From the UHGV virus genome UHGV-0110231: a stretch of 41,294 nt of DNA. One strand, 5' to 3'. A model generated the notes under the pieces. It ran no database searches. It saw only the letters and a list, made by a program, of their open reading frames with translations, and was not told the origin of the DNA. Each line of letters opens with the position of its first letter. Position 1 is the stretch's first letter. The position numbers and the translations under genes were made by a program. This stretch comes from a virus. Of this stretch, positions 5,211 to 38,846 are shown one piece after another.

Positions 5211-5225
5211 TTACCGTTGAGGTAA
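5211..5225. promoter_or_regulatory. Operator-like palindrome (putative PL region)
   Basis: TTACCGTTGAGGTAA; nested in a larger inverted repeat TTACCTC...GAGGTAA. Confidence 0.5.
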
Positions 5226-5272
5226 TAATTATGCGTATTTGGTTTGATGTCAATAGATATGAGTTGAAAAAA

Positions 5273-5287
5273 TTACCTATTAGGTAA
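5273..5287. promoter_or_regulatory. Operator-like palindrome (putative PL region)
   Basis: TTACCTATTAGGTAA, a perfect TTACC-N5-GGTAA. Confidence 0.5.
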
Positions 5288-5344: not shown

Positions 5345-5929
5345 TTATTGTTTGTTTTTTTCGTTCTGGTTGATGACAAATTCAATGTAACTTTCGATCT
5401 TTGCTTTCTCGGTTTCGGGTAACAATGCGTAGCGCGAGCGGTCATAGTTGATGGTCGCAGGGTCGTGCGGGTGAATCAGTAATTCATAGCCGTGACGCCC
5501 GAATGCGGATGCAACATTCTCCAGGGTGGAAATGGAAACGCTGACCTCATTGTTTAACAGGCGGCTGATTGTCACCTGGGCGACGCCGGATGCGCGGTGA
5601 AGTTTTCCCTGTGTTGAAAGGTCGCGGCTTTCGCTCATCCAGCGTTCCAGGTTGTGAGCCGCCAGCTGACCAATGTCGCTTGGGCCGACAGGCTGAAAAC
5701 CTTCCTGAGAAAGCGAGCGATCGATATCAAGCCAGTTACGGGGTTTATTGGCGGCAGCTTCAATTTTTCGCGCAACCTGGTCGCCGATAACCTTCTTGCC
5801 AAGAGCCCAGCGGTTTACCAGATTTGCCTGAGTTCCAAGTTTTTCTGCCATCCGCGTCTGAACACCATTGAATTCACGGTCGATCAAGTCGTTGAGATTT
5901 TGCCTGCGGACGTCCTGGATACTTTTCAT
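5345..5929 (-). CDS. Prophage repressor with two HTH (XRE-type) domains and no recognisable S24 peptidase domain
   Basis: 194 aa; N-terminal HTH (MAEKLGTQANLVNRWALGKK) and a second HTH (ASGVAQVTISRLLNNEVSVSISTLENVASAFG); divergent from the cro-like gene across an operator cluster. Confidence 0.7.
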   Translation of the reverse strand: MKSIQDVRRQNLNDLIDREFNGVQTRMAEKLGTQANLVNRWALGKKVIGDQVARKIEAAANKPRNWLDIDRSLSQEGFQPVGPSDIGQLAAHNLERWMSESRDLSTQGKLHRASGVAQVTISRLLNNEVSVSISTLENVASAFGRHGYELLIHPHDPATINYDRSRYALLPETEKAKIESYIEFVINQNEKNKQ

Positions 5930-6083: not shown

Positions 6084-6314
6084 ATGAGCGATAACGGACA
6101 TTTCGATTTCAAAAAGCACTGGCTTGCACTTACTCCGGATGAGCGTGAAGCCTTCGCACAGGAAGCCGGAACGACGAGTCACTATATCCAGACTCACTTA
6201 ACAGGTAAGCGCAAAATGCCAGGTAAAGTATTGATGAATGGGCTTTTTAAAGCCTGTAAAACAAGACAATGGCTGCGCTCAAAAGCAGAACTGGCATACT
6301 TCTTCTACTCATGA
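6084..6314 (+). CDS. Cro-like HTH regulator
   Basis: 76 aa; first rightward gene after the operators; HTH-like segment EAGTTSHYIQTHLTGKRKMP. Confidence 0.55.
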   Translation: MSDNGHFDFKKHWLALTPDEREAFAQEAGTTSHYIQTHLTGKRKMPGKVLMNGLFKACKTRQWLRSKAELAYFFYS

Positions 6315-6384: not shown

Positions 6385-6464
6385 TAAAAAACCAAATCTG
6401 GTTGATCTTTTTTTTGTGTCAGCACAAAATAACCGTAATCCCAATACTAATAACAGGGCTTACC

Positions 6465-6680: not shown

Positions 6681-7496
6681 ATGAGCAGACATGCAACAGA
6701 TTGGGCCTGGGAGACAGATCCAGGTAGCTCATCATTAAAGCTCATACTGCTCTCGATGGCTGACAGAGCCGATGAATATAACCTCTGCTACCCCAGCATA
6801 GAACGCCTCGTTAAAGACACTTGCCTGAATAAAAAAACCGTGCAGGCCGGGCTTATATCGCTCATGAAAATGGGGCTTATTTCAGATACCGGAGAGAGAA
6901 AGGGAGCGACAAAAAGAGTGCGGGTTTTCTCTCTTAATATAACCAAAAACGGGAACATTAAAGGCAACCGGGAGGGTGGCAATGAACCCGAAAACGGTAA
7001 TGTTACCGAAAACGGGAATATACCCAAAAACGGGATGTTGAATGATCCCAAAAACGGGATGTTGAATGATCCCAAAAACGGGATCCAGAACCAGTCATAT
7101 AACCAGTCATTTAACCAAGAGAGGGAGAGCAGGACAAAAAACGGGGATTCTGTGCATCATGACCCCGGCGCAAACAACGCCGTGATGAATAACTTTGTTC
7201 CTCCTGGTGGGCCAGGGCAATTAGGCAAATTTGTCATGCATGAACAATGGCAGCCATCAGATGACTTTCTTCGGAAAAGCTCATTGCAGGGGATCTACCT
7301 GGACAGTCTGCCAACGGCACAGGAACTTGCAGAGTTCAGAATTTACTGGATGGCTGAGGGTAAGGCATACCATCAGGCACAGTGGGAGCAGAAGCTGGCA
7401 AGGCGGCTGCAGATTAGCAGACAGAAGCAATCAACATTACCTGATAACAACGTTCCGCACTGGAACAGCCCTGAAGCATGGGAGGATTTCTTGTGA
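6681..7496 (+). CDS. Replication initiator (lambda O-like replisome organiser) with N-terminal winged-helix domain
   Basis: 271 aa; N-terminal HTH; iterons embedded in the coding sequence, as in lambda O. Confidence 0.65.
   Translation: MSRHATDWAWETDPGSSSLKLILLSMADRADEYNLCYPSIERLVKDTCLNKKTVQAGLISLMKMGLISDTGERKGATKRVRVFSLNITKNGNIKGNREGGNEPENGNVTENGNIPKNGMLNDPKNGMLNDPKNGIQNQSYNQSFNQERESRTKNGDSVHHDPGANNAVMNNFVPPGGPGQLGKFVMHEQWQPSDDFLRKSSLQGIYLDSLPTAQELAEFRIYWMAEGKAYHQAQWEQKLARRLQISRQKQSTLPDNNVPHWNSPEAWEDFL
6943..7083. repeat. Putative replication origin iterons (CCAAAAACGGGA, at least 5 copies including two exact 24-bp tandem units)
   Basis: Copies at 6943, 7006, 7024, 7048 and 7072, plus variants at 6988 and 7134; they encode the PKNGMLND peptide repeats. 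Confidence 0.6.
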
Positions 7497-8278
7497 ACAA
7501 CGTTTTTACCGCGATACAAAACCGTGACGGAGAAGCCCTTTCTCGCATGTCAGGTTATGAGCATCAGTACACCAACAATGACAACGTGGTGAACATGTCA
7601 GCAGAGAGGCTTGTTGATGCCCTTTTCAAACAGCTGAAACAACTGTTTCCGGCGGCAGTGGTAACCAACCTGAAGACGCCAGAGCAGGAAGTTGCTGCAA
7701 AACAGCAGTGGATTGCTGCGTTTGCCGAAGGGGGGATCCGAACCCGTGAACAGGTTTCTGCTGGTATGCGCCACGCCCGCGCCAGTGAGTCTCCGTTCTG
7801 GCCGTCGCCAGGGCAATTCATCAAGTGGTGTAAAGACAGCAAGATGGTTCTTGGCGTCACCATTGACGATGTGATGGCGGAGTTTCACCGGTACAGCAAG
7901 GAAAAAAGTTTATATCCTGGTGGTCCCGAAAGATTCCCGTGGCGACATCCGGTTATGTACTGGGTCGTATGTGATACCCGCCGTGCAATGTATCAGCGCC
8001 AGCTTAGCGAGATTGAGGTTGAGAAACACGCGCGCAGGCTGCTCGATGATTGGGCGAAAAAGGTGGCTTCCGGACAGCAGATACCCGATCCGGTGATCAG
8101 CATACAGGCAAAGCCAGAACCCATGAGTACGCCTCCGGACACAGGGAGAGACGTTTACCATCCACCAGGGCGAAGTTTCGGGTGCATGCCTAACGCCGCC
8201 ACCCTTGGGGGAATAACACCGGCGCAGTGGCTGATGGAGGAATACAGGCGGGGAAAGGCGTCAGGATTTATCAAGTAA
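7493..8278 (+). CDS. Replication protein (lambda P-like helicase-loader position)
   Basis: GTG start with GGGAGGA Shine-Dalgarno (alternative ATG at 7478); immediately follows and overlaps the O-like gene. Confidence 0.5.
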   Translation: MNNVFTAIQNRDGEALSRMSGYEHQYTNNDNVVNMSAERLVDALFKQLKQLFPAAVVTNLKTPEQEVAAKQQWIAAFAEGGIRTREQVSAGMRHARASESPFWPSPGQFIKWCKDSKMVLGVTIDDVMAEFHRYSKEKSLYPGGPERFPWRHPVMYWVVCDTRRAMYQRQLSEIEVEKHARRLLDDWAKKVASGQQIPDPVISIQAKPEPMSTPPDTGRDVYHPPGRSFGCMPNAATLGGITPAQWLMEEYRRGKASGFIK

Positions 8279-8315
8279 TACCAGCGCGATAGCGCATTTT
8301 TTTACGTCTCGATAA

Positions 8316-8330
8316 TTACCTTAGAGGTAA
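8316..8330. promoter_or_regulatory. Operator-like palindrome
   Basis: TTACCTTAGAGGTAA. Confidence 0.5.
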
Positions 8331-8377
8331 TAAAATATTCTAAAATCTATTGATTTCGTGTCTTATGTGGTTTTTAA

Positions 8378-8392
8378 TTACCTAAGGGGTAA
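8378..8392. promoter_or_regulatory. Operator-like palindrome, 4 nt before the ATG at 8396
   Basis: TTACCTAAGGGGTAA. Confidence 0.5.
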
Positions 8393-8395
8393 ATC

Positions 8396-8743
8396 ATGAG
8401 AAAACAGATGCAGGCTCTTGGTCGACTCAAAACAGGCCAGATGAACAAAACAGAATCTGCGTATTGCCAGCACCTTGAGCTGCGTAAACGTGCAGGAGAA
8501 ATCGTCTGGTATCGATTTGAGGGTATCAAGCTGCGGTTAGCTGACAACACGTTCTATACGCCAGATTTTGCTGTGATGCTCGCCACCGGCGAGATGGAAC
8601 TGCACGAAGTGAAAGGGGGATTCTGGACCGATGACGCCAGAGTGAAAACCAAAGTCGCCGCAGATCAGTATCCGTTCCGAATCATCGGGGTAACGGTTAA
8701 GCCAAAGAAAGCAGGTGGTGGCTGGAACATCGAAGAGTTCTGA
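8396..8743 (+). CDS. Small PD-(D/E)XK-type nuclease (DUF1064-like; possible Holliday-junction resolvase)
   Basis: 115 aa; YTPDF ... ELHEVKG matches a D...E.K nuclease signature. Confidence 0.45.
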   Translation: MRKQMQALGRLKTGQMNKTESAYCQHLELRKRAGEIVWYRFEGIKLRLADNTFYTPDFAVMLATGEMELHEVKGGFWTDDARVKTKVAADQYPFRIIGVTVKPKKAGGGWNIEEF

Positions 8744-8804
8744 ATCGACGATCTTTTTAGTTATCAATGTAATCAATAAGTTATGTGGATAAGCGAGGGT
8801 AAAG

Positions 8805-9284
8805 ATGGAAAGTAATATCAAAGGGTTAGTTGCCGCCGGGCATGAGATGGCTTCGGAACTGAAAGCAGAATGTGGTGCCGTTGATATGCGCAGTGTGGCA
8901 AAGCTCATCAGCGATTTGGCAACGCAACTGGAAGTGCAACTGGTGCGTGCTAATGCGCTGGCAGCGGAGAATGCGGGGCTGAAGTCTGGCGCTATGGATG
9001 AAATCAAGGTTATCAACCGTGGAGGGCAGGCATATTGCGTAAAAGATGGAGTGCAAGTTAATCCCATGTATGCAAGAGGGTGGAATGACTATCGCGCAAA
9101 GTCTCTGCAATCAGACACCCCAGCCACCGATGCTTTCCTGGCTGAAATTGAACGCAAAGCAATCCGCAAGTTCATTAACAGCATTGAACACATCCTGCGT
9201 GACAAGTTATCACCGTATGACACCGAAGAGATGCTTGAGGCTATGCGTATTTTTCTGGAAGAACAGGGAGGTGAGCAAAAATGA
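8805..9284 (+). CDS. Hypothetical protein
   Basis: 159-aa ORF with Shine-Dalgarno in the accessory region. Confidence 0.45.
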   Translation: MESNIKGLVAAGHEMASELKAECGAVDMRSVAKLISDLATQLEVQLVRANALAAENAGLKSGAMDEIKVINRGGQAYCVKDGVQVNPMYARGWNDYRAKSLQSDTPATDAFLAEIERKAIRKFINSIEHILRDKLSPYDTEEMLEAMRIFLEEQGGEQK

Positions 9285-9598
9285 CGATCACAAAACAACG
9301 TGTAGAAAAAATCATATCCCGCATTGAAATGTATGGGCATGGTGCCGGGTATACCGCTGACGAGGTTTATGACCTTGCTGTACTGGCGCTGAATTTATCA
9401 AATATCGCAAAACTCAAGCGATACGAGCTTGATATGGATGGTTGTGACTCGTTCGGTCAGGATTGTGGCGCTGACATGACTGAAGATTCTGATGGCGATT
9501 ATGTCCTGTTTGATGACGTGGTTAAGTTGTTTGAGTTTGATACAACCACTCAGAAGTTAGAAAGCCCAGCAAAGGAGGCAGCCAGTGAGCGAGATTGA
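9281..9598 (+). CDS. Hypothetical acidic protein
   Basis: 105 aa; GGAGGTGA Shine-Dalgarno; start overlaps the previous stop. Confidence 0.45.
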   Translation: MTITKQRVEKIISRIEMYGHGAGYTADEVYDLAVLALNLSNIAKLKRYELDMDGCDSFGQDCGADMTEDSDGDYVLFDDVVKLFEFDTTTQKLESPAKEAASERD

Positions 9599-10250
9599 CT
9601 ATCAGGCACTGCGTGAGGCGGCAGTGAAAGCAACGTGGGGAGACTGGGACTCATATAAACCACACCGTGGCGCACGTGGTTATGAGGTCCGACTAAGTAG
9701 TCAGGCCATTGCGCAACACGTTCTGAAAAACAACGTTGAATTTATTGCTGCCTTTAATCCAAAGGTTGCTTTGGCACTACTGGATGAACGGGAAAGAAAC
9801 CAGCAATACATCAAAAACCGCGACCAGGAGAACGAGGATATTGCGCTAACGGTAGGGAAGCTGCGCGTTGAGCTGGAAGGCAAAGACAGCAAAATAGCCA
9901 ATCTTACCGCCGAACGCGATGCTCTTCGTGAAGGTGAGATGGGCGACGCTAGGCATAGCAACACACGGGCCGCAGCTGATATCTACTTCCAACTGGTCGA
10001 GGAGTGCGAAATTCCTGCTGGCGGTTCTCTGGTCGAGTACGTTGACGATATGCGCGAGAAGTTGGAAGCCGCAGAGAAGCGCATAGCAGAACTGGAAGCA
10101 CGGGAGGTTGTACTGCCGCGTGCGCACGATGTTCACCCATTAGGGCCGCAGTCGGCGAAAATTTTTTGTGAGTTTCACCGGAGTATCGTGAACAGATGCG
10201 CCGATGAGATTCGCAAGGTTGGCGTCAAAGTCAGCATCAAGGGGAATTAG
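9585..10250 (+). CDS. ead/Ea22-like protein
   Basis: 221 aa; N-terminus SEIDYQALREAAVKATWGDW typical of Ea22-like prophage proteins; coiled-coil middle; GTG start with AAGGAGG. Confidence 0.55.
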   Translation: MSEIDYQALREAAVKATWGDWDSYKPHRGARGYEVRLSSQAIAQHVLKNNVEFIAAFNPKVALALLDERERNQQYIKNRDQENEDIALTVGKLRVELEGKDSKIANLTAERDALREGEMGDARHSNTRAAADIYFQLVEECEIPAGGSLVEYVDDMREKLEAAEKRIAELEAREVVLPRAHDVHPLGPQSAKIFCEFHRSIVNRCADEIRKVGVKVSIKGN

Positions 10251-10254
10251 GGAT

Positions 10255-10833
10255 ATGGCTGAACTAACCAAAGAATGGCTGAAGCAAACTATCGCTGAAT
10301 ACGAAGCCAATCGTGATGAATTACCGTTTGGACTGGATACCAACAGTGCCATTGAGCTTCAGGCGTTCAAGTTGGCGCTGGCATCGCTGGAAGCAGAACA
10401 AGTTGCTTATATTTTCAAACATCCGGCTGGAAAATTATTCTGGGCTTTAACGGATGAAAGCAATAAAGATCAATCGGACGTTATTCCTGTTTATGCTGCC
10501 TCACCTGCACCGATAGCGTCGGAGGCCATTGAAAACGCTATTGAATACATCCGCAGTATCGTTTTTCACATCGATGAAGACGATTACCACGGCAAACATA
10601 TTGCGTATTTCATGCGACAAGCATTGGCCTGGCTGGAAGGGCATTCATGCAGTGATGACAGTCAGGGCAAATCCGATAATTCACCATTGCCGCGCTACCA
10701 GGTGATCGAATTAACAATGCTGGTTAAACAATTGGTCAGCCAACTGAAAAAAGCAAAACCTGATTGCAAATTACCTGATAGGGCGATGGATTATCTTTTG
10801 CGAAACGGACTGGTAAGTGCGGAGGGGGTTTAA
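10255..10833 (+). CDS. Hypothetical protein
   Basis: Internal ATG after the previous stop, with GGGA Shine-Dalgarno. Confidence 0.45.
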   Translation: MAELTKEWLKQTIAEYEANRDELPFGLDTNSAIELQAFKLALASLEAEQVAYIFKHPAGKLFWALTDESNKDQSDVIPVYAASPAPIASEAIENAIEYIRSIVFHIDEDDYHGKHIAYFMRQALAWLEGHSCSDDSQGKSDNSPLPRYQVIELTMLVKQLVSQLKKAKPDCKLPDRAMDYLLRNGLVSAEGV

Positions 10834-10835
10834 CG

Positions 10836-11387
10836 ATGACCATTTCTACAAAAAAGCCTCTTTATGCTGAGGTTCACAATGTTCCTGATGATTATGAGTT
10901 CACTGACGAGGAACTAAACAGAATTATTGCAGGTGATATGTTCACTCCTCGTCAGGACGCAATAATGGCACGGGAGATACAGAAACTCCGTGCCGCCATG
11001 CTTCATGGTGCAGAACCTGTAAAACAGACTTACAAGTTGCCTCCCCTGTCATCCAGCGAAGTAAACGAAGCGGCATGGAGATTACACAACATGCTGACTG
11101 AATGCATCCCTCTAAATGGTCATCAGTTCAACAATCTGAAGGGTTGGTTCTATGAGGCGTTAAAGGTCGCAATGCGCAACTATCCGGCAACTCCGGATGG
11201 TTGGGTTCCGGTAAGCGAAAGGATGCCGGAACCTTATGAATACGTTCTTGTAACTGATGGTTTTGATGGCTGTGAGGTTATGCGTGTTAATACAGATGGC
11301 TACTGGGGGCCAGCAAAGAGTTTATATCCAGGTAGTATTACCCACTGGATGCCACTGCCAGCAGCACCGCAGCAGGAGGTGAAGTAA
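10836..11387 (+). CDS. DUF551-like protein
   Basis: 183 aa; C-terminal WVPVSERMPE...W motif. Confidence 0.5.
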   Translation: MTISTKKPLYAEVHNVPDDYEFTDEELNRIIAGDMFTPRQDAIMAREIQKLRAAMLHGAEPVKQTYKLPPLSSSEVNEAAWRLHNMLTECIPLNGHQFNNLKGWFYEALKVAMRNYPATPDGWVPVSERMPEPYEYVLVTDGFDGCEVMRVNTDGYWGPAKSLYPGSITHWMPLPAAPQQEVK

Positions 11388-11509
11388 TGAACAAGTGCAA
11401 CGCTCTGCTTTATGCCATGGTGATTGGTTTCGGCCTGGCTGCTGGTATCCGGGTTTATATTGCCTGGGAGTCATTAATCAATCTGGCGTGGAGTGCGATT
11501 CGTGGCTAA
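11387..11509 (+). CDS. Small hydrophobic membrane peptide (40 aa)
   Basis: Not in the ORF track; GGAGGTG Shine-Dalgarno, TAATG overlap with the upstream stop; MNKCNALLYAMVIGFGLAAGIRVYIAW... Confidence 0.35.
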   Translation: MNKCNALLYAMVIGFGLAAGIRVYIAWESLINLAWSAIRG

Positions 11510-11840
11510 ATCCCCCGCAGAACGCAAAGCCGCGCAGCGCGCTCGGCAGTCAGCCGCCGGTGAGCGCAAAATTGAACTGGTGCTGGATAAGCAGGAGCAG
11601 GAAATGCTGGAGCGTAACTGTGCCGCCCGTCGCCCTGGTCGTGCGCCGTATGAAATGAGCGAATACATCGCGTTACTGATCCGCCAGGATGATGCACGCG
11701 TGCGCGGGCGTATAAAATCGATCAGCAGAAAACGTTGCGGTAAGTGCGGCGAGAGAGTTCCAGTTAATTCATGCCCGTGTAATGGTGACTCGCAATGCTG
11801 GGTGACTAAAGGCTGGCATGAAACGAAATTAATAGTGTGA
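11493..11840 (+). CDS. Basic protein with C-terminal Cys cluster (zinc ribbon); candidate late-gene regulator
   Basis: 115 aa; CGKCGERVPVNSCPCNGDSQC; last gene before a terminator and the terminase genes. Confidence 0.45.
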   Translation: MRFVAKSPAERKAAQRARQSAAGERKIELVLDKQEQEMLERNCAARRPGRAPYEMSEYIALLIRQDDARVRGRIKSISRKRCGKCGERVPVNSCPCNGDSQCWVTKGWHETKLIV

Positions 11841-11848
11841 CATGTCAC
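11837..11848. repeat. Perfect 12-bp palindrome GTGACATGTCAC (copy 1)
   Basis: Overlaps the stop codon of the 11493..11840 gene. Confidence 0.7.
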
Positions 11849-11889: not shown

Positions 11890-11915
11890 GCCGCCAACTA
11901 TGGCGGCTTTATTTT
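11890..11915 (+). terminator. Rho-independent terminator upstream of terminase (tR'-like)
   Basis: Hairpin GCCGCCA-acta-TGGCGGC followed by TTTATTTT. Confidence 0.55.
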
Positions 11916-14101: not shown

Positions 14102-14113
14102 GTGACATGTCAC
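14102..14113. repeat. Perfect 12-bp palindrome GTGACATGTCAC (copy 2)
   Basis: Between the convergent terminase and gp49-like genes. Confidence 0.7.
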
Positions 14114-15086: not shown

Positions 15087-15176
15087 TAATTTGTGCGTTA
15101 AATGTCAACTATCTACGATAAATAAATCATATGTGGTTAAATTGGTAATAATTTAATTGCGTACGGAGTCATTGAT

Positions 15177-31350: not shown

Positions 31351-31647
31351 ATGCAAGCTATAGGATTCATTGTTTATATCGTCGTTGGTCTTTTTCAGTT
31401 GGCAGTAATTATGGCTGGGCTTGAATCATGGTTTGGATTGCACTGGATAATTGCAGCCCCCATTGCTTTCATCGTTAGCTATATTCCATTTGTTGGAGCG
31501 ATTGTTGGTATGGTTGGCGCTGTGGATGTATGGCGGTGGGAGTGGTGGCAGGCTGGCCTTCTCTTCTTTGGTGGGATCATCTTTGCTATTGTCTGCGGTG
31601 GAATGTCATCATTTTTCGAATGGCTATCATTCAGAAAAAGAACGTGA
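31351..31647 (+). CDS. Polytopic inner-membrane protein; candidate superinfection-exclusion factor
   Basis: 98 aa, roughly three hydrophobic helices; sits where P22 carries sieA. Confidence 0.5.
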   Translation: MQAIGFIVYIVVGLFQLAVIMAGLESWFGLHWIIAAPIAFIVSYIPFVGAIVGMVGAVDVWRWEWWQAGLLFFGGIIFAIVCGGMSSFFEWLSFRKRT

Positions 31648-31655
31648 CATGTCAC
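31644..31655. repeat. Perfect 12-bp palindrome GTGACATGTCAC (copy 3)
   Basis: Overlaps the stop codon of the 31351..31647 gene, in the same register as copy 1. Confidence 0.7.
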
Positions 31656-31679: not shown

Positions 31680-31937
31680 TTACCGGGTTTGTTTTCGTAA
31701 TTGTTCGGCACAATAGTCGAGATGTGTTTGCAGATCCCGCATAGACATCTGTGAGCTGGTGACGTAGTTAATCAGTGCAGTCAGTTCGGCAAGTGGGCCA
31801 TCGACATTAAATCCATCCTTATCGAGATCCCGGAGTAATTTCATCAAGTGCGATCCTTCCACCAGTGACCTGACGCCTCCCGGCGTGTGAATCTTTTCGG
31901 TAAATCCGTCTTCCAGTGGATAGTGATACTGCTGCAT
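31680..31937 (-). CDS. Small protein (85 aa) under a LexA-box promoter; candidate SOS-inducible antirepressor or effector
   Basis: ATG at 31937 with GGAG Shine-Dalgarno; LexA box 20 nt upstream; the longer ORF to 32003 would place the box inside the coding sequence. Confidence 0.5.
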   Translation of the reverse strand: MQQYHYPLEDGFTEKIHTPGGVRSLVEGSHLMKLLRDLDKDGFNVDGPLAELTALINYVTSSQMSMRDLQTHLDYCAEQLRKQTR

Positions 31938-31956
31938 CTTATCTTCTCCATGCAAT

Positions 31957-31976
31957 AACTGTATAAATGTACAGTA
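31957..31976. promoter_or_regulatory. LexA (SOS) box
   Basis: AACTGTATAAATGTACAGTA against consensus TACTGTATATATATACAGTA; CTGT-N8-ACAG intact. Confidence 0.7.
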
Positions 31977-32023
31977 GCAAATAATTTGTTTGCTATCCAG
32001 CACGTTTTGCTAATCACCTGAAA

Positions 32024-32038
32024 GGTAATATCTGTTCG
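32024..32038. promoter_or_regulatory. Operator-like palindrome in the divergent region before the tailspike
   Basis: TCACCTGAAAGGTAA. Confidence 0.45.
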
Positions 32039-32132
32039 TATTCATGAGCTATATATCCATATATGGTTTTTCAGGTAATAGAATAACCAGATATGCGGCG
32101 CAACGGGTGCTGCGACTATCTGGAGATTTAAC

Positions 32133-34958: not shown

Positions 34959-36761
34959 TTAATTTATTTTTGATAAAAGATACTTACCTACTATTTTAGA
35001 ACCATCACTAGAAAGATGCCCACCATCAAAATAAACCGGTTTATCATTATGAATAACCATGCACTTCCCATTCTTGCACAGCTCGTCTTTAGGATTTATT
35101 ATCTTATAAGAGGCAAGCCCATCCCCTGAGTTCTCTATAAATAAATCATCAAGTTTTGTGCTCTTTATATCTACTAAATTTTTGCAGCCATCAAGTATGT
35201 GTCTAACTGGAAGTCTATTTCCATTCATGCAAGAAACAACGTCATAGTTTGGATGTTGGTAATTTCCTATTACATACATTCTTTTATCTTTATTAATAAG
35301 TTGTCGCCACTTGTTTATTTGTGAGAGTATAACATTATTATATGATGACTTACTTACATAATCTCCATGACGACTTATTAATTTATCATTATATCTCTCC
35401 CAGTTATGAGCAAGTATTATAGTGTTTGATTTCGATTTATTTATCTCATTGATTGCTTTTTCATACATCGAATAGCATCCTGATTCTTCTTTAGCATAAT
35501 AATCAGGAAGAATTGGGCATGACACTAACGAAATAAATGTTGCATTTATACCTTCACTGTCAATAAAGTCAATGAATTGCTGTGAGTAGCTATCACCAAC
35601 AAAAATAATGCCATCCTGTTTGCTTGATTCATTCAAATGCAAAATCTTTCCATTTGCCTTACCAAATAGTCTGTGTCCTCCATATGACGTATCCACCTTG
35701 CTACTTATCCTTGATGGAGCACCGGCGTAAAATATTGATGATGATATTAACATCATAAATATATATGAAAACAAAATAATATTTATATTTTTAACTTTAG
35801 ATTCAACTAAATGATGAAGTATTAATGATAAAGTGAAAACAATAAACAAATAAAAAAATAACCCAACCTCAATATTTAACTTTCTGAAAAACACTATGAC
35901 AGGCCAATGCACAAGATAAATCGAATAAGAAATTATTCCTATGTACTGTATTACTCTGTTTCTAAAGAATGAATTTTCGTTCATTCCTGAATGTATTACA
36001 AGCATAGCTCCGACAACAGGCACTATTGCATTTACGCCAGGCCACGCCATCGTGTCATTATAAATAATGAATGATAACAGTATCAATACAACACCAAATA
36101 TCTCTCCAATCCTATTTAATTTTAATTTTTTATTAATCACATAAACTATTGCCCCGCCCATCATTTGCCAGGATCTTCCGGGGAGAGAATAGTATGCAAA
36201 TTTACTATGATTGAATGCTTGATATATAGAAAGCGCAAGCGATAAAACGAATATTGAGTAAATAAGAACAACTCTATTGCTTCTATTTTTTACGAGATAT
36301 AAAAAAATTGGGAATAGTATATAGAATTGCCATTCAACAGAAAGTGACCACGTATGAAGTAGTATTTTGCTTTTTGAGTCCGAATCAAAATACCCACTCT
36401 CAAATGCATACACATAATTTGATATGAATGACATGCTTGATAGCATATGCTTTCCAAGCATTTTGTATGATGTTACATCAAGTGATACAAAACCTATTAT
36501 TGAAGTAAACAAAACAACTGCAATAAGTGCTGGTATAATTCTTTTTACTCTTGATGTGTAAAATTTTTTAAATGAAAAGTTACCATTATCCATCCCATTC
36601 ATTATGATGGAGGTCATAAGATAACCTGATATCACGAAGAAAATATCTACGCCAGCAAATCCACCCGGTAACCACTGCGGATTAAAATGAAAAATCACAA
36701 CAGACATGACTGCTATAGCTCTCAGTCCGTCAATATCCTTTCTGCGTTGAATGGAAGGCAT
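34959..36761 (-). CDS. Membrane acyltransferase-3 (OafA-like) with C-terminal SGNH domain; putative O-antigen acetyltransferase
   Basis: 600 aa; N-terminal acyltransferase-3 motifs (DGLRAIAVMSVVIFHF), multiple TM helices, soluble C-terminal domain; strongly AT-rich compared with the rest of the prophage. Confidence 0.75.
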   Translation of the reverse strand: MPSIQRRKDIDGLRAIAVMSVVIFHFNPQWLPGGFAGVDIFFVISGYLMTSIIMNGMDNGNFSFKKFYTSRVKRIIPALIAVVLFTSIIGFVSLDVTSYKMLGKHMLSSMSFISNYVYAFESGYFDSDSKSKILLHTWSLSVEWQFYILFPIFLYLVKNRSNRVVLIYSIFVLSLALSIYQAFNHSKFAYYSLPGRSWQMMGGAIVYVINKKLKLNRIGEIFGVVLILLSFIIYNDTMAWPGVNAIVPVVGAMLVIHSGMNENSFFRNRVIQYIGIISYSIYLVHWPVIVFFRKLNIEVGLFFYLFIVFTLSLILHHLVESKVKNINIILFSYIFMMLISSSIFYAGAPSRISSKVDTSYGGHRLFGKANGKILHLNESSKQDGIIFVGDSYSQQFIDFIDSEGINATFISLVSCPILPDYYAKEESGCYSMYEKAINEINKSKSNTIILAHNWERYNDKLISRHGDYVSKSSYNNVILSQINKWRQLINKDKRMYVIGNYQHPNYDVVSCMNGNRLPVRHILDGCKNLVDIKSTKLDDLFIENSGDGLASYKIINPKDELCKNGKCMVIHNDKPVYFDGGHLSSDGSKIVGKYLLSKIN

Positions 36762-36816: not shown

Positions 36817-36921
36817 TTTTGGTAAGAACAATTTTGGGTATGTTTAACCACATATGGTTTATTGTGTATGATGAACTCACCAACTAAGGGGGTTCTTTAT
36901 GCGTATTAAACGGTGGTCACT

Positions 36922-38829: not shown

Positions 38830-38846
38830 ATTGAGTGGGAATGATT
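38830..38846. repeat. attR core (ATTGAGTGGGAATGATT)
   Basis: Exact repeat of 39..55. Confidence 0.75.

Follow-up and report, generated by a model that had tools for sequence, protein, structure and literature searches.

A nuclease-candidate gene behind the replication genes

Directly downstream of the O-like and P-like replication genes, the window (the whole stretch of 41,294 nucleotides that was analysed) carries a gene for a protein of 115 amino acids. Between the replication genes and this gene lie a weak terminator and two copies of a palindrome, here called op1 and op2, which bracket a probable promoter, here called Pduf. Judged by its sequence, the window is a complete phiV10/epsilon15-type E. 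coli prophage (phiV10-like, Uetakevirus) of ~38.8 kb, since the attachment core published for phiV10 and epsilon15, ATTGAGTGGGAATGATT (PMC9782041), is found at 39-55 and again at 38830-38846. Region 7400-9400 is shared, at 97-98% identity, with Escherichia phage phiV10, with its Uetakevirus relatives and with prophages found in 947 out of 5426 complete E. coli genomes. The features on which the argument draws are these:

5211-5287, minus strand: PL region (operator 5287-5273, 19 nt, TTGACA 5253-5248, 17 nt, AATTAT 5230-5225, operator 5225-5211)
5345-5929, minus strand: repressor gene (rep), with matches to Pfam HTH_3 and PDB 5D50 chain A
6084-6314: Cro-like gene, the next after the repressor gene and itself followed by a small gene
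6681-7496: O-like replication initiator gene
7478-8278: P-like helicase loader gene
8284-8303, plus strand: weak intrinsic terminator after the P-like gene (hairpin GCGC-GATA-GCGC at 8284-8295, an A, then seven T)
8315-8331 (core 8316-8330): op1, the distal operator, ATTACC-TTAGA-GGTAAT (core TTACCTTAGAGGTAA, 17-mer ATTACCTTAGAGGTAAT)
8350-8378, plus strand: Pduf, a probable sigma-70 promoter (-35 TTGATT at 8350-8355, 17 nt, -10 TTTAAT at 8373-8378)
8377-8393 (core 8378-8392): op2, the proximal operator, ATTACC-TAAGG-GGTAAA (core TTACCTAAGGGGTAA)
8396-8743, plus strand: DUF1064 nuclease-candidate gene, 115 aa, ATG start, homolog of phiV10 gp45
8805-11840, plus strand: remaining genes of the probable operon behind Pduf (Eae-like, an unknown, Ead/Ea22-like, unknowns, DUF551 and, last, PHROG_536)
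11493-11840, plus strand: the PHROG_536 gene, a 'transcriptional regulator' like epsilon15 gp49; the terminase genes come next
11890-11907, plus strand: intrinsic terminator ending the operon
31937-31683, minus strand: ant, antirepressor gene, 85 aa
31959-31974: perfect LexA box, CTGTATAAATGTACAG, just upstream of ant

An IMG/VR viral contig encodes a protein with 100% identity to the 115-aa product; identity is 93-98% to proteins of phiV10, SPN1S and other sequenced phages, and 85-96% in the comparison with phiV10, SPN1S, SPC32H, BUCT554 and BUCT711. In phiV10 (gp45, PhiV10p45, YP_512300.1), SPN1S, SPC32H, BUCT554 and BUCT711 the homolog occupies the same slot, between the P-like gene and the eae-like gene. 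These phiV10-type relatives have the same cassette upstream of the gene as the window; the operator spacer bases differ, and nothing of substance does otherwise. The window's protein has one extra Gly (KGG) where the phiV10-type homologs have KG. In the relatives, the leftward operon includes a RecT/exonuclease module.

Over residues 1-190 the product of rep aligns with chain A of PDB 5D50, 'Repressor' (E 4e-42), and is a homolog, diverged in sequence, of the Rep protein of Salmonella phage SPC32H. Moreover, the product of ant matches chain E of the same entry, 'Anti-repressor protein', at E 4.4e-46. Given a Rep homolog, an Ant homolog and the LexA box, the prophage therefore has a Rep-Ant-LexA switch of the SPC32H type, in which the LexA-controlled ant gene is likely to be the induction input that lifts repression at all operators.

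Operators, probable promoter and probable operon

As a 17-mer, ATTACCTTAGAGGTAAT, op1 is an inverted repeat without mismatches. Its end falls 19 nt before the -35 hexamer, and it overlaps a stretch rich in A/T that looks like an UP element. A preliminary description had placed a perfect palindrome before the gene, which holds for op2 as far as its 5+5 arms, but not for its 17-mer, where the outermost base is mismatched. The ATG was said to start 4 nt after this palindrome and does begin at the fourth base after the op2 core, the core thus ending 3 nt short of it. A second site, given as 60 bp upstream, is real and lies at 8316-8330, but the spacing is 62 bp from start to start rather than 60, and the two cores form an 18-nt direct repeat of the palindrome. 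The first core base of op2 is also the last base of the -10, and both the predicted start of transcription and the Shine-Dalgarno AAGGGG (8384-8389) lie within op2.

When the window is searched for TTACC-N5-GGTAA with at most one mismatch, 13 sites are found where 0.80 are expected, and none of 100 shuffles reached 13. Besides op1 and op2, these palindromes stand at the following positions:

189: ahead of int
5211 and 5273: PL side of rep
5985 and 6033: PR side of rep
6370: after a terminator, ahead of the replication genes
11927 and 11945: after a terminator, ahead of the small terminase gene
15072: ahead of the portal region
32014: between ant and the tailspike gene
36802: between the O-antigen acetylase gene and the holin gene

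The palindrome stands at most transcription-unit starts, late-gene regions included, and is ordinary for this phage group. The element that carries it also encodes the Rep homolog, with palindromes on both sides of the rep gene, and the same arrangement around rep is found in phiV10, SPN1S, BUCT554, BUCT711 and epsilon15. In the RefSeq record of epsilon15, seven such sites are annotated 'protein_bind: repressor', and the annotated site at 35906-35922 (ATTACC-N5-GGTAAT) is the exact counterpart of op1; the proximal operator of epsilon15 carries no annotation. The epsilon15 genome paper reportedly described ATTACC-N5-GGTAAT operators, which the feature table of that record backs. The earlier call of op1 and op2 as operators is borne out by this sequence evidence, namely by the same motif flanking the repressor gene at PL and PR and by the repressor-binding annotation of the epsilon15 homolog. 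Rep is the presumed ligand of the palindromes, and sequence and analogy both point to its binding at op1 and op2.

Across 67 distinct upstream sequences taken from related viral contigs, TTACC and GGTAA are unchanged at op1, and the half-sites of op2 differ by just two singleton changes. By comparison the 5-nt spacer of op1 occurs in 27 variants among the same 67 relatives, and spacer columns reach a diversity of 0.5-0.6; the half-sites are under purifying selection. The same half-sites occur in all six Uetakevirus lineages examined, including epsilon15, whose repressor is only 42% homologous to that of phiV10 (PMC9782041). Moreover, the 62-bp spacing of op1 and op2 is kept in phiV10, SPN1S, BUCT554, BUCT711 and epsilon15, and in 78 of 78 viral contigs with the cassette, the search pattern having allowed 57-63 bp. 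A reading of the palindromes as RNA hairpins was rejected, both folds being too weak to matter (op1, -5.5 kcal/mol, with 1 of 200 shuffles folding as well; op2, -4.2 kcal/mol, no better than shuffles at 62 of 200).

Separately, an island of ~40 bp around op1 (8305-8345) reaches a diversity of up to 0.5-0.6 per column, against 0.04-0.06 at third codon positions in the conserved module on either side (7766-8960). This island holds 12 of the 33 differences among 13 nearly identical sequence pairs.

The terminator at 8284-8303 has a 4-bp stem and an RNA fold of -7.4 kcal/mol (z = -4.2), and is weaker than the other terminators of the prophage, which range from -13.8 to -17.5 kcal/mol. Its stem and T-run are invariant in six Uetakevirus lineages, and its phiV10 equivalent is annotated as a putative rho-independent terminator. 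Between op1 and op2 the sequence suggests a probable sigma-70 promoter, Pduf, with a predicted transcription start at about 8384-8386. The -10, TTTAAT, lacks the consensus A at position 2, and Pduf was missing from a consensus promoter scan of the window because that scan requires this A. Because the A is usually essential, Pduf may be weak or in need of a factor. Six lineages that differ at neighbouring bases all keep the -35 context, CTATTGA, and the -10 region, and both are invariant or nearly so among the 67 distinct upstream sequences. Furthermore, the layout of Pduf is exactly that of PL: operator, 19 nt, -35, 17 nt, -10, operator. At PL the operators are spaced by 62 bp in phiV10, SPN1S and BUCT554 and by 63 bp in BUCT711.

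The Pduf spacer also holds a conserved T-TGG-T motif. The sequence TATGTGGTT in the same spacer was considered as a DnaA box and rejected because it has three mismatches to TTATCCACA. A perfect DnaA box does occur at 8784-8792, and a single copy arises by chance in 21 of 100 shuffles. A leftward promoter-like match at 8364-8337 was likewise rejected, since that strand has no gene downstream.

Between 8743 and 11890 we found no Rep-type palindrome and no terminator on the plus strand. Therefore, the operon probably extends to the PHROG_536 regulator, Pduf heading a unit of ~3.5 kb (8396 to ~11907) with about eight genes, of which the nuclease-candidate gene is the first. With a promoter that probably serves about eight genes, the two operators would thus control an operon and its putative regulator, not one gene.

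The DUF1064 protein and its place in related phages

The 115-aa protein matches Pfam DUF1064 (PF06356) at 26.4 bits, above the gathering threshold of 24.7, over residues 18-93, and it matches PHROG_190, which is labelled Holliday junction resolvase, at 1e-43. Close homologs already bear PF06356 and the name 'DUF1064 domain-containing protein'. The family is large: a word-indexed search returned 6175 relatives, and a library clustered at 50% identity returned 4653 cluster representatives at E <= 0.001. No match to the protein was found in NCBIfam or in PADLOC. DUF1064 was assigned to the PD-(D/E)XK superfamily in 2005 and has been a predicted nuclease since (PMC1189080); a 2012 survey still listed its function as unknown and suggested a role in recombination (PMC3424549). 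In the literature searched we found no biochemical study of the family.

The D...E.K signature previously ascribed to the protein is present in the plus-strand ORF as D57...E71-V-K73. Among 37 aligned members, the most distant at 48% identity, E20, D57, K84 and K86 are invariant, and E71, K73, D79 and D80 are at least 90% conserved, so the catalytic residues hold up in the alignment. A confident AF2 model of the protein (pLDDT 87.4) has the alpha-beta-beta-beta-alpha-beta core of the PD-(D/E)XK fold. It places E20 at the start of helix 18-32 (helix 1), D57 immediately ahead of strand 58-62, and both E71 and K73 within strand 67-73, which gives the PD-(D/E)XK signature of an E on helix 1, a (P)D at the start of a strand and a (D/E)xK on the next strand. 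Sequence and model thus support the protein as a candidate PD-(D/E)XK-fold nuclease of canonical layout, with E20, D57, E71 and K73 as the predicted catalytic residues.

The model resembles Hjc and T7 endonuclease I, and its closest compact structural matches are junction resolvases. Predicted viral structures that match the protein are named endonuclease I-like, endonuclease or DUF1064. A single-sequence search of PDB sequences with the 115-aa protein gave no match. When the DUF1064 family profile was compared with solved structures in the PDB, T7 endonuclease I was the sole match, and a marginal one (E 0.018). That alignment pairs YTPDF, vETKG(W) and DDrkK (DD..K), and in PDB 1FZR, an E65K mutant, the K falls exactly opposite E71. 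The protein did not reach the threshold of Phage_endo_I (PF05367), scoring 11.7 bits against a cutoff of 29.1. With DUF1064 above its threshold, the predicted catalytic residues conserved and a model like Hjc and T7 endonuclease I, the nuclease call made beforehand stands, for a candidate.

The slot itself is informative. In epsilon15, at the same genome position, the cassette is the same as that of the window, element by element, up to GGTAAATCATG (terminator, op1, TTGAAA, 17 nt, TTAAAT, op2, ATC, ATG). However, the gene behind it encodes, in place of a DUF1064 protein, a RuvC-like Holliday junction resolvase (NP_848251.1; PF02075, 25.7 bits), whose RuvC/RNase H-like fold is unrelated to DUF1064. 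Among the 78 viral contigs, the gene that starts 3 nt after op2 encodes a DUF1064 protein in 70 and a RuvC-like protein in 8, and nothing else is found. The alternation of two unrelated nuclease folds in one slot is good circumstantial evidence, at the level of sequence, for a shared role in resolving junctions.

Orthologs with 70-81% identity in F116 and Bcep176 are differently placed, lying inside an early operon with overlapping or abutting neighbours and no room for a promoter of their own. In F116 the gene adjoins NinB and HNH, and in Bcep176 it follows a primosomal gene. The window, F116 and Bcep176 therefore all associate the gene with phage replication and recombination genes.

A probable repressed early operon and its known counterparts

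Taken together, we consider it likely that a junction-type DUF1064 nuclease stands first in an early operon, behind a Rep-repressed promoter that op1 and op2 bracket. The nuclease would most likely cut branched DNA, such as Holliday junctions and the branches of replication and recombination, during lytic growth and before packaging; its junction specificity is suggested by the sequence comparisons above. The operon would start behind the weak terminator that follows the replication genes, with its own probable sigma-70 promoter. In the lysogen, Rep on both op1 and op2 would shut Pduf, as at PL, where the geometry is identical. Rep on op2 would block the formation of the open complex, and Rep on op1 would block the upstream contact zone, possibly pairing with op2. 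Upon DNA damage, cleavage of LexA would allow Ant to be made and Rep to be disassembled, and Pduf would fire together with the other Rep-controlled promoters. The activity of Pduf, its start site and any looping of the DNA are predictions in this scheme.

One Rep tetramer may bridge the 62-bp pair, a distance of about six helical turns. One report describes SPC32H Rep as a tetramer on palindromic sites in which each DNA-binding pair comes from different dimers (PMC9638917). Moreover, its tetramerization domain is homologous, according to another, to the DNA-looping domain in Rco of plasmid pLS20 (PMC9986798). A loop of 62 bp is tight, and two independent Rep tetramers are equally compatible with the data. 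A bolder reading joins three proposals: that a single Rep tetramer clamps the 62-bp pairs of Pduf and PL into a very small loop; that the ~40-bp island at 8305-8345, evolving about ten times faster than nearby silent sites although the op1 half-sites within it are kept, reflects ongoing selection on the spacer and flank; and that DUF1064 is an uncharacterised family of phage Holliday-junction resolvases interchangeable with RuvC. We offer this combination tentatively and hold it to be doubtful as a whole. If the reading of the island were true, selection may tune, for example, Rep affinity or the upstream element of the promoter.

The two operators were at first taken as a sign that a toxic nuclease is tightly repressed. 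It is true that op2 overlaps the -10 and the predicted start as well as the nuclease gene's own ribosome-binding site, that both gene types found in the slot are junction-type nucleases, and that T7 endonuclease I is toxic to E. coli cells expressing it. However, nothing in the present data specifically supports this purpose. The motif belongs to a genome-wide set at most unit starts, among them those of the terminase, portal, tailspike and lysis regions; the arrangement of the two operators repeats that of PL; about eight genes, the putative regulator included, probably depend on the promoter; and the orthologs of F116 and Bcep176 do without a promoter of their own. We therefore think it unlikely that the operators exist specifically to keep the nuclease off in the lysogen; the nuclease itself may be toxic. 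The protein could also be an active PD-(D/E)XK nuclease with another job, such as degradation of host or competitor DNA, a homing or restriction-like activity, anti-defence, or trimming during packaging and head completion. This is improbable given that the slot alternates with a RuvC-like resolvase and nothing else in the 78 contigs, that unrelated phages also carry the gene next to replication and recombination genes, and that the closest compact structural matches and the sole sequence-profile match are junction resolvases. The lack of a match in PADLOC points the same way.

The regulation, too, can be read otherwise. The palindromes might be bound mainly by a regulator other than Rep, either the Cro-like protein (6084-6314) or PHROG_536, or the upstream site might be an activator site. 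Cro and the repressor bind the same operators in switches of the lambda type; in the window, op1 lies at about -62 relative to the predicted start, where class I activators typically bind, the -10 departs from consensus, and sites also stand ahead of late genes. Against this, the sites cluster on both sides of rep in a classical operator arrangement and such sites are annotated as repressor sites in the epsilon15 record. Moreover, in phage ZX5, overexpression of the identical repressor reduced the transcripts for holin and endolysin by over 99.9% (PMC9782041), which fits direct or indirect control of late genes by the repressor. We regard a main ligand other than Rep as very unlikely, and binding shared with Cro would not conflict with Rep control of the operon. 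Similarly slight is the chance that 8350-8378 holds no working promoter, with the operon expressed by read-through only and Rep reinforcing the weak terminator as a roadblock to polymerases that read through from PR. The low stability of that terminator (-7.4 kcal/mol, 4-bp stem), the missing consensus A in the -10 and the absence of this promoter from the consensus scan speak for it. Yet CTATTGA and the -10 region stay unchanged in six lineages that vary at the adjoining bases, and the hexamer spacing and operator placement replicate those of PL, which is necessarily a promoter. PR is already repressed in the lysogen, so a roadblock would add little.

By itself the finding matters little, as public phiV10 and epsilon15 records already contain the gene, the family to which it is assigned and the repressor-site motif. 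The additions made here are modest: the identity of Pduf and PL in geometry, the fixed 62-bp spacing and the alternation of DUF1064 with RuvC. Nevertheless, two unrelated nuclease families that alternate behind one conserved cassette yield a cheap and specific hypothesis for DUF1064, namely junction resolution. A promoter clamped by two operators 62 bp apart would also offer a simple test bed for an SPC32H-type tetrameric repressor on DNA. Lastly, the map of Rep sites suggests that this phage group represses most of its transcription units directly, beyond PL and PR.

Among systems that are better known, the closest in regulation is the SPC32H switch (PDB 5D50, 5D4Z), with which the window shares Rep and Ant homologs and a LexA box before ant. 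SPN1S, near-identical to SPC32H, has the same palindromes around rep. For the protein, T7 endonuclease I (gene 3; PDB 1M0D, 1FZR) is likewise a small PD-(D/E)XK enzyme of a phage, and several depositors name DUF1064 homologs 'endonuclease I-like'. T7 endonuclease I is an intertwined dimer, and its likeness to DUF1064 is marginal by sequence. The archaeal Hjc resolvases (PDB 1GEF, 2WCW, 1HH1) share 12-15% identity with the protein, and no relationship to them was detected at the sequence level. In gene order, the nearest parallel is that of Rap and RusA in the nin regions of lambdoid phages, where junction-cutting nucleases likewise lie downstream of the replication genes on the early rightward transcript. 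Their folds are unrelated to DUF1064, and the Rap and RusA genes of lambda depend on antitermination and have no repressor-controlled promoter of their own.

Prophage ends and Rep-type sites beyond the repressor region

The phiV10/epsilon15 attachment core ATTGAGTGGGAATGATT is present as direct repeats at 39-55 and 38830-38846, which enclose a complete prophage of ~38.8 kb, and the sequence past 38846 is that of the host. Further palindromes of the Rep type (TTACC-N5-GGTAA, the putative operator of the prophage repressor Rep) are located as follows:

189, 6370, 11927, 11945, 15072, 32014 and 36802, Rep-type palindromes

The genes behind them are those for the integrase, replication, the small terminase, the portal region, the tailspike and lysis, often with a terminator immediately 5′ of the palindrome. 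Judged from the placement of these sites, the phage appears to repress most of its transcription units directly, beyond PL and PR, the promoter regions on either side of rep. The antirepressor gene (within 31683-31974) encodes a homologue of Ant from the Salmonella phage SPC32H (E 4.4e-46); CTGTATAAATGTACAG, a perfect LexA box, lies upstream of this gene within the same interval. Between the antirepressor and tailspike genes, the Rep-type site at 32014-32028 carries one mismatch.

Nuclease exchange and operator variation at the cassette

The terminator-operator-promoter-operator cassette that precedes the DUF1064 nuclease gene is also found in epsilon15 (locus L088, 35857-36451), where the gene behind it encodes a RuvC-like Holliday junction resolvase and not DUF1064. 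The same holds for viral contigs L089, L093, L112, L126, L131, L140, L144 and L150. Overall, the gene behind the cassette is DUF1064 in 70 of 78 contigs and RuvC-like in 8/78; this is an in-place swap between two unrelated nuclease families.

The 1.2-kb module at 7766-8960 is very conserved, except for a hypervariable island (8305-8345) surrounding the distal operator of the cassette. Diversity reaches 0.4-0.6 in the spacer columns of this operator (8322-8325), compared to 0.04-0.06 at third codon positions, and the spacer takes 27 variants among 80 loci with both half-sites, TTACC and GGTAA, constant throughout. When 13 near-identical sequence pairs were compared, this 41-nt island held 12 of the 33 differences. 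The distal operator of PL leans the same way, with 11 variants of its spacer across 39 loci at the operator's commonest position; operators overlapping core promoter elements show no such tendency. The island may reflect faster mutation, selection on affinity or the persistence of old alleles.

Two further palindromes

A second palindrome, AACCA-N4-TGGTT, has 6 matches in the window against 1.5 expected. Four of these matches, and a separate half-site, are at:

6390-6403, exact match
36846-36859, exact match
15125-15138, one mismatch
32055-32068, one mismatch
8366-8372, half-site, in the spacer of the probable promoter between the cassette operators

Each of these four matches follows a Rep-type site, 20-53 nt further downstream, and stands ahead of the replication, portal, tailspike or lysis genes; two of the four places are kept in epsilon15 (2985 and 33749). 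The half-motif T-TGG-T is conserved in the cassette promoter spacer and is also present, in reverse orientation, in PL. Another regulator may bind at AACCA-N4-TGGTT.

The 12-bp palindrome GTGACATGTCAC occurs in three exact copies, with 0.04 expected in the window:

11837-11848, 14102-14113 and 31644-31655, copies of GTGACATGTCAC

Two of these cover stop codons (of the PHROG_536 regulator gene and of ORF 31351-31647) with terminators downstream.

Possible replication-related motifs

A perfect DnaA box, TTATCCACA (8784-8792, minus strand), is present as a single copy in the conserved gap of 61 nt that separates the nuclease gene from the eae-like gene. Of 100 shuffled sequences, 21 contained one or more such boxes by chance. 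In the epsilon15 record, the corresponding gap carries an annotated IHF site. Within the O-like replication initiator gene, a 20-nt unit, TGGGATCATTCAACATCCCG (minus strand), is present in two tandem copies at 7031-7074, where the protein carries the repeat PKNGMLND. These units look like replication-origin iterons, similar to those of lambda, whose origin iterons also lie inside the initiator gene.
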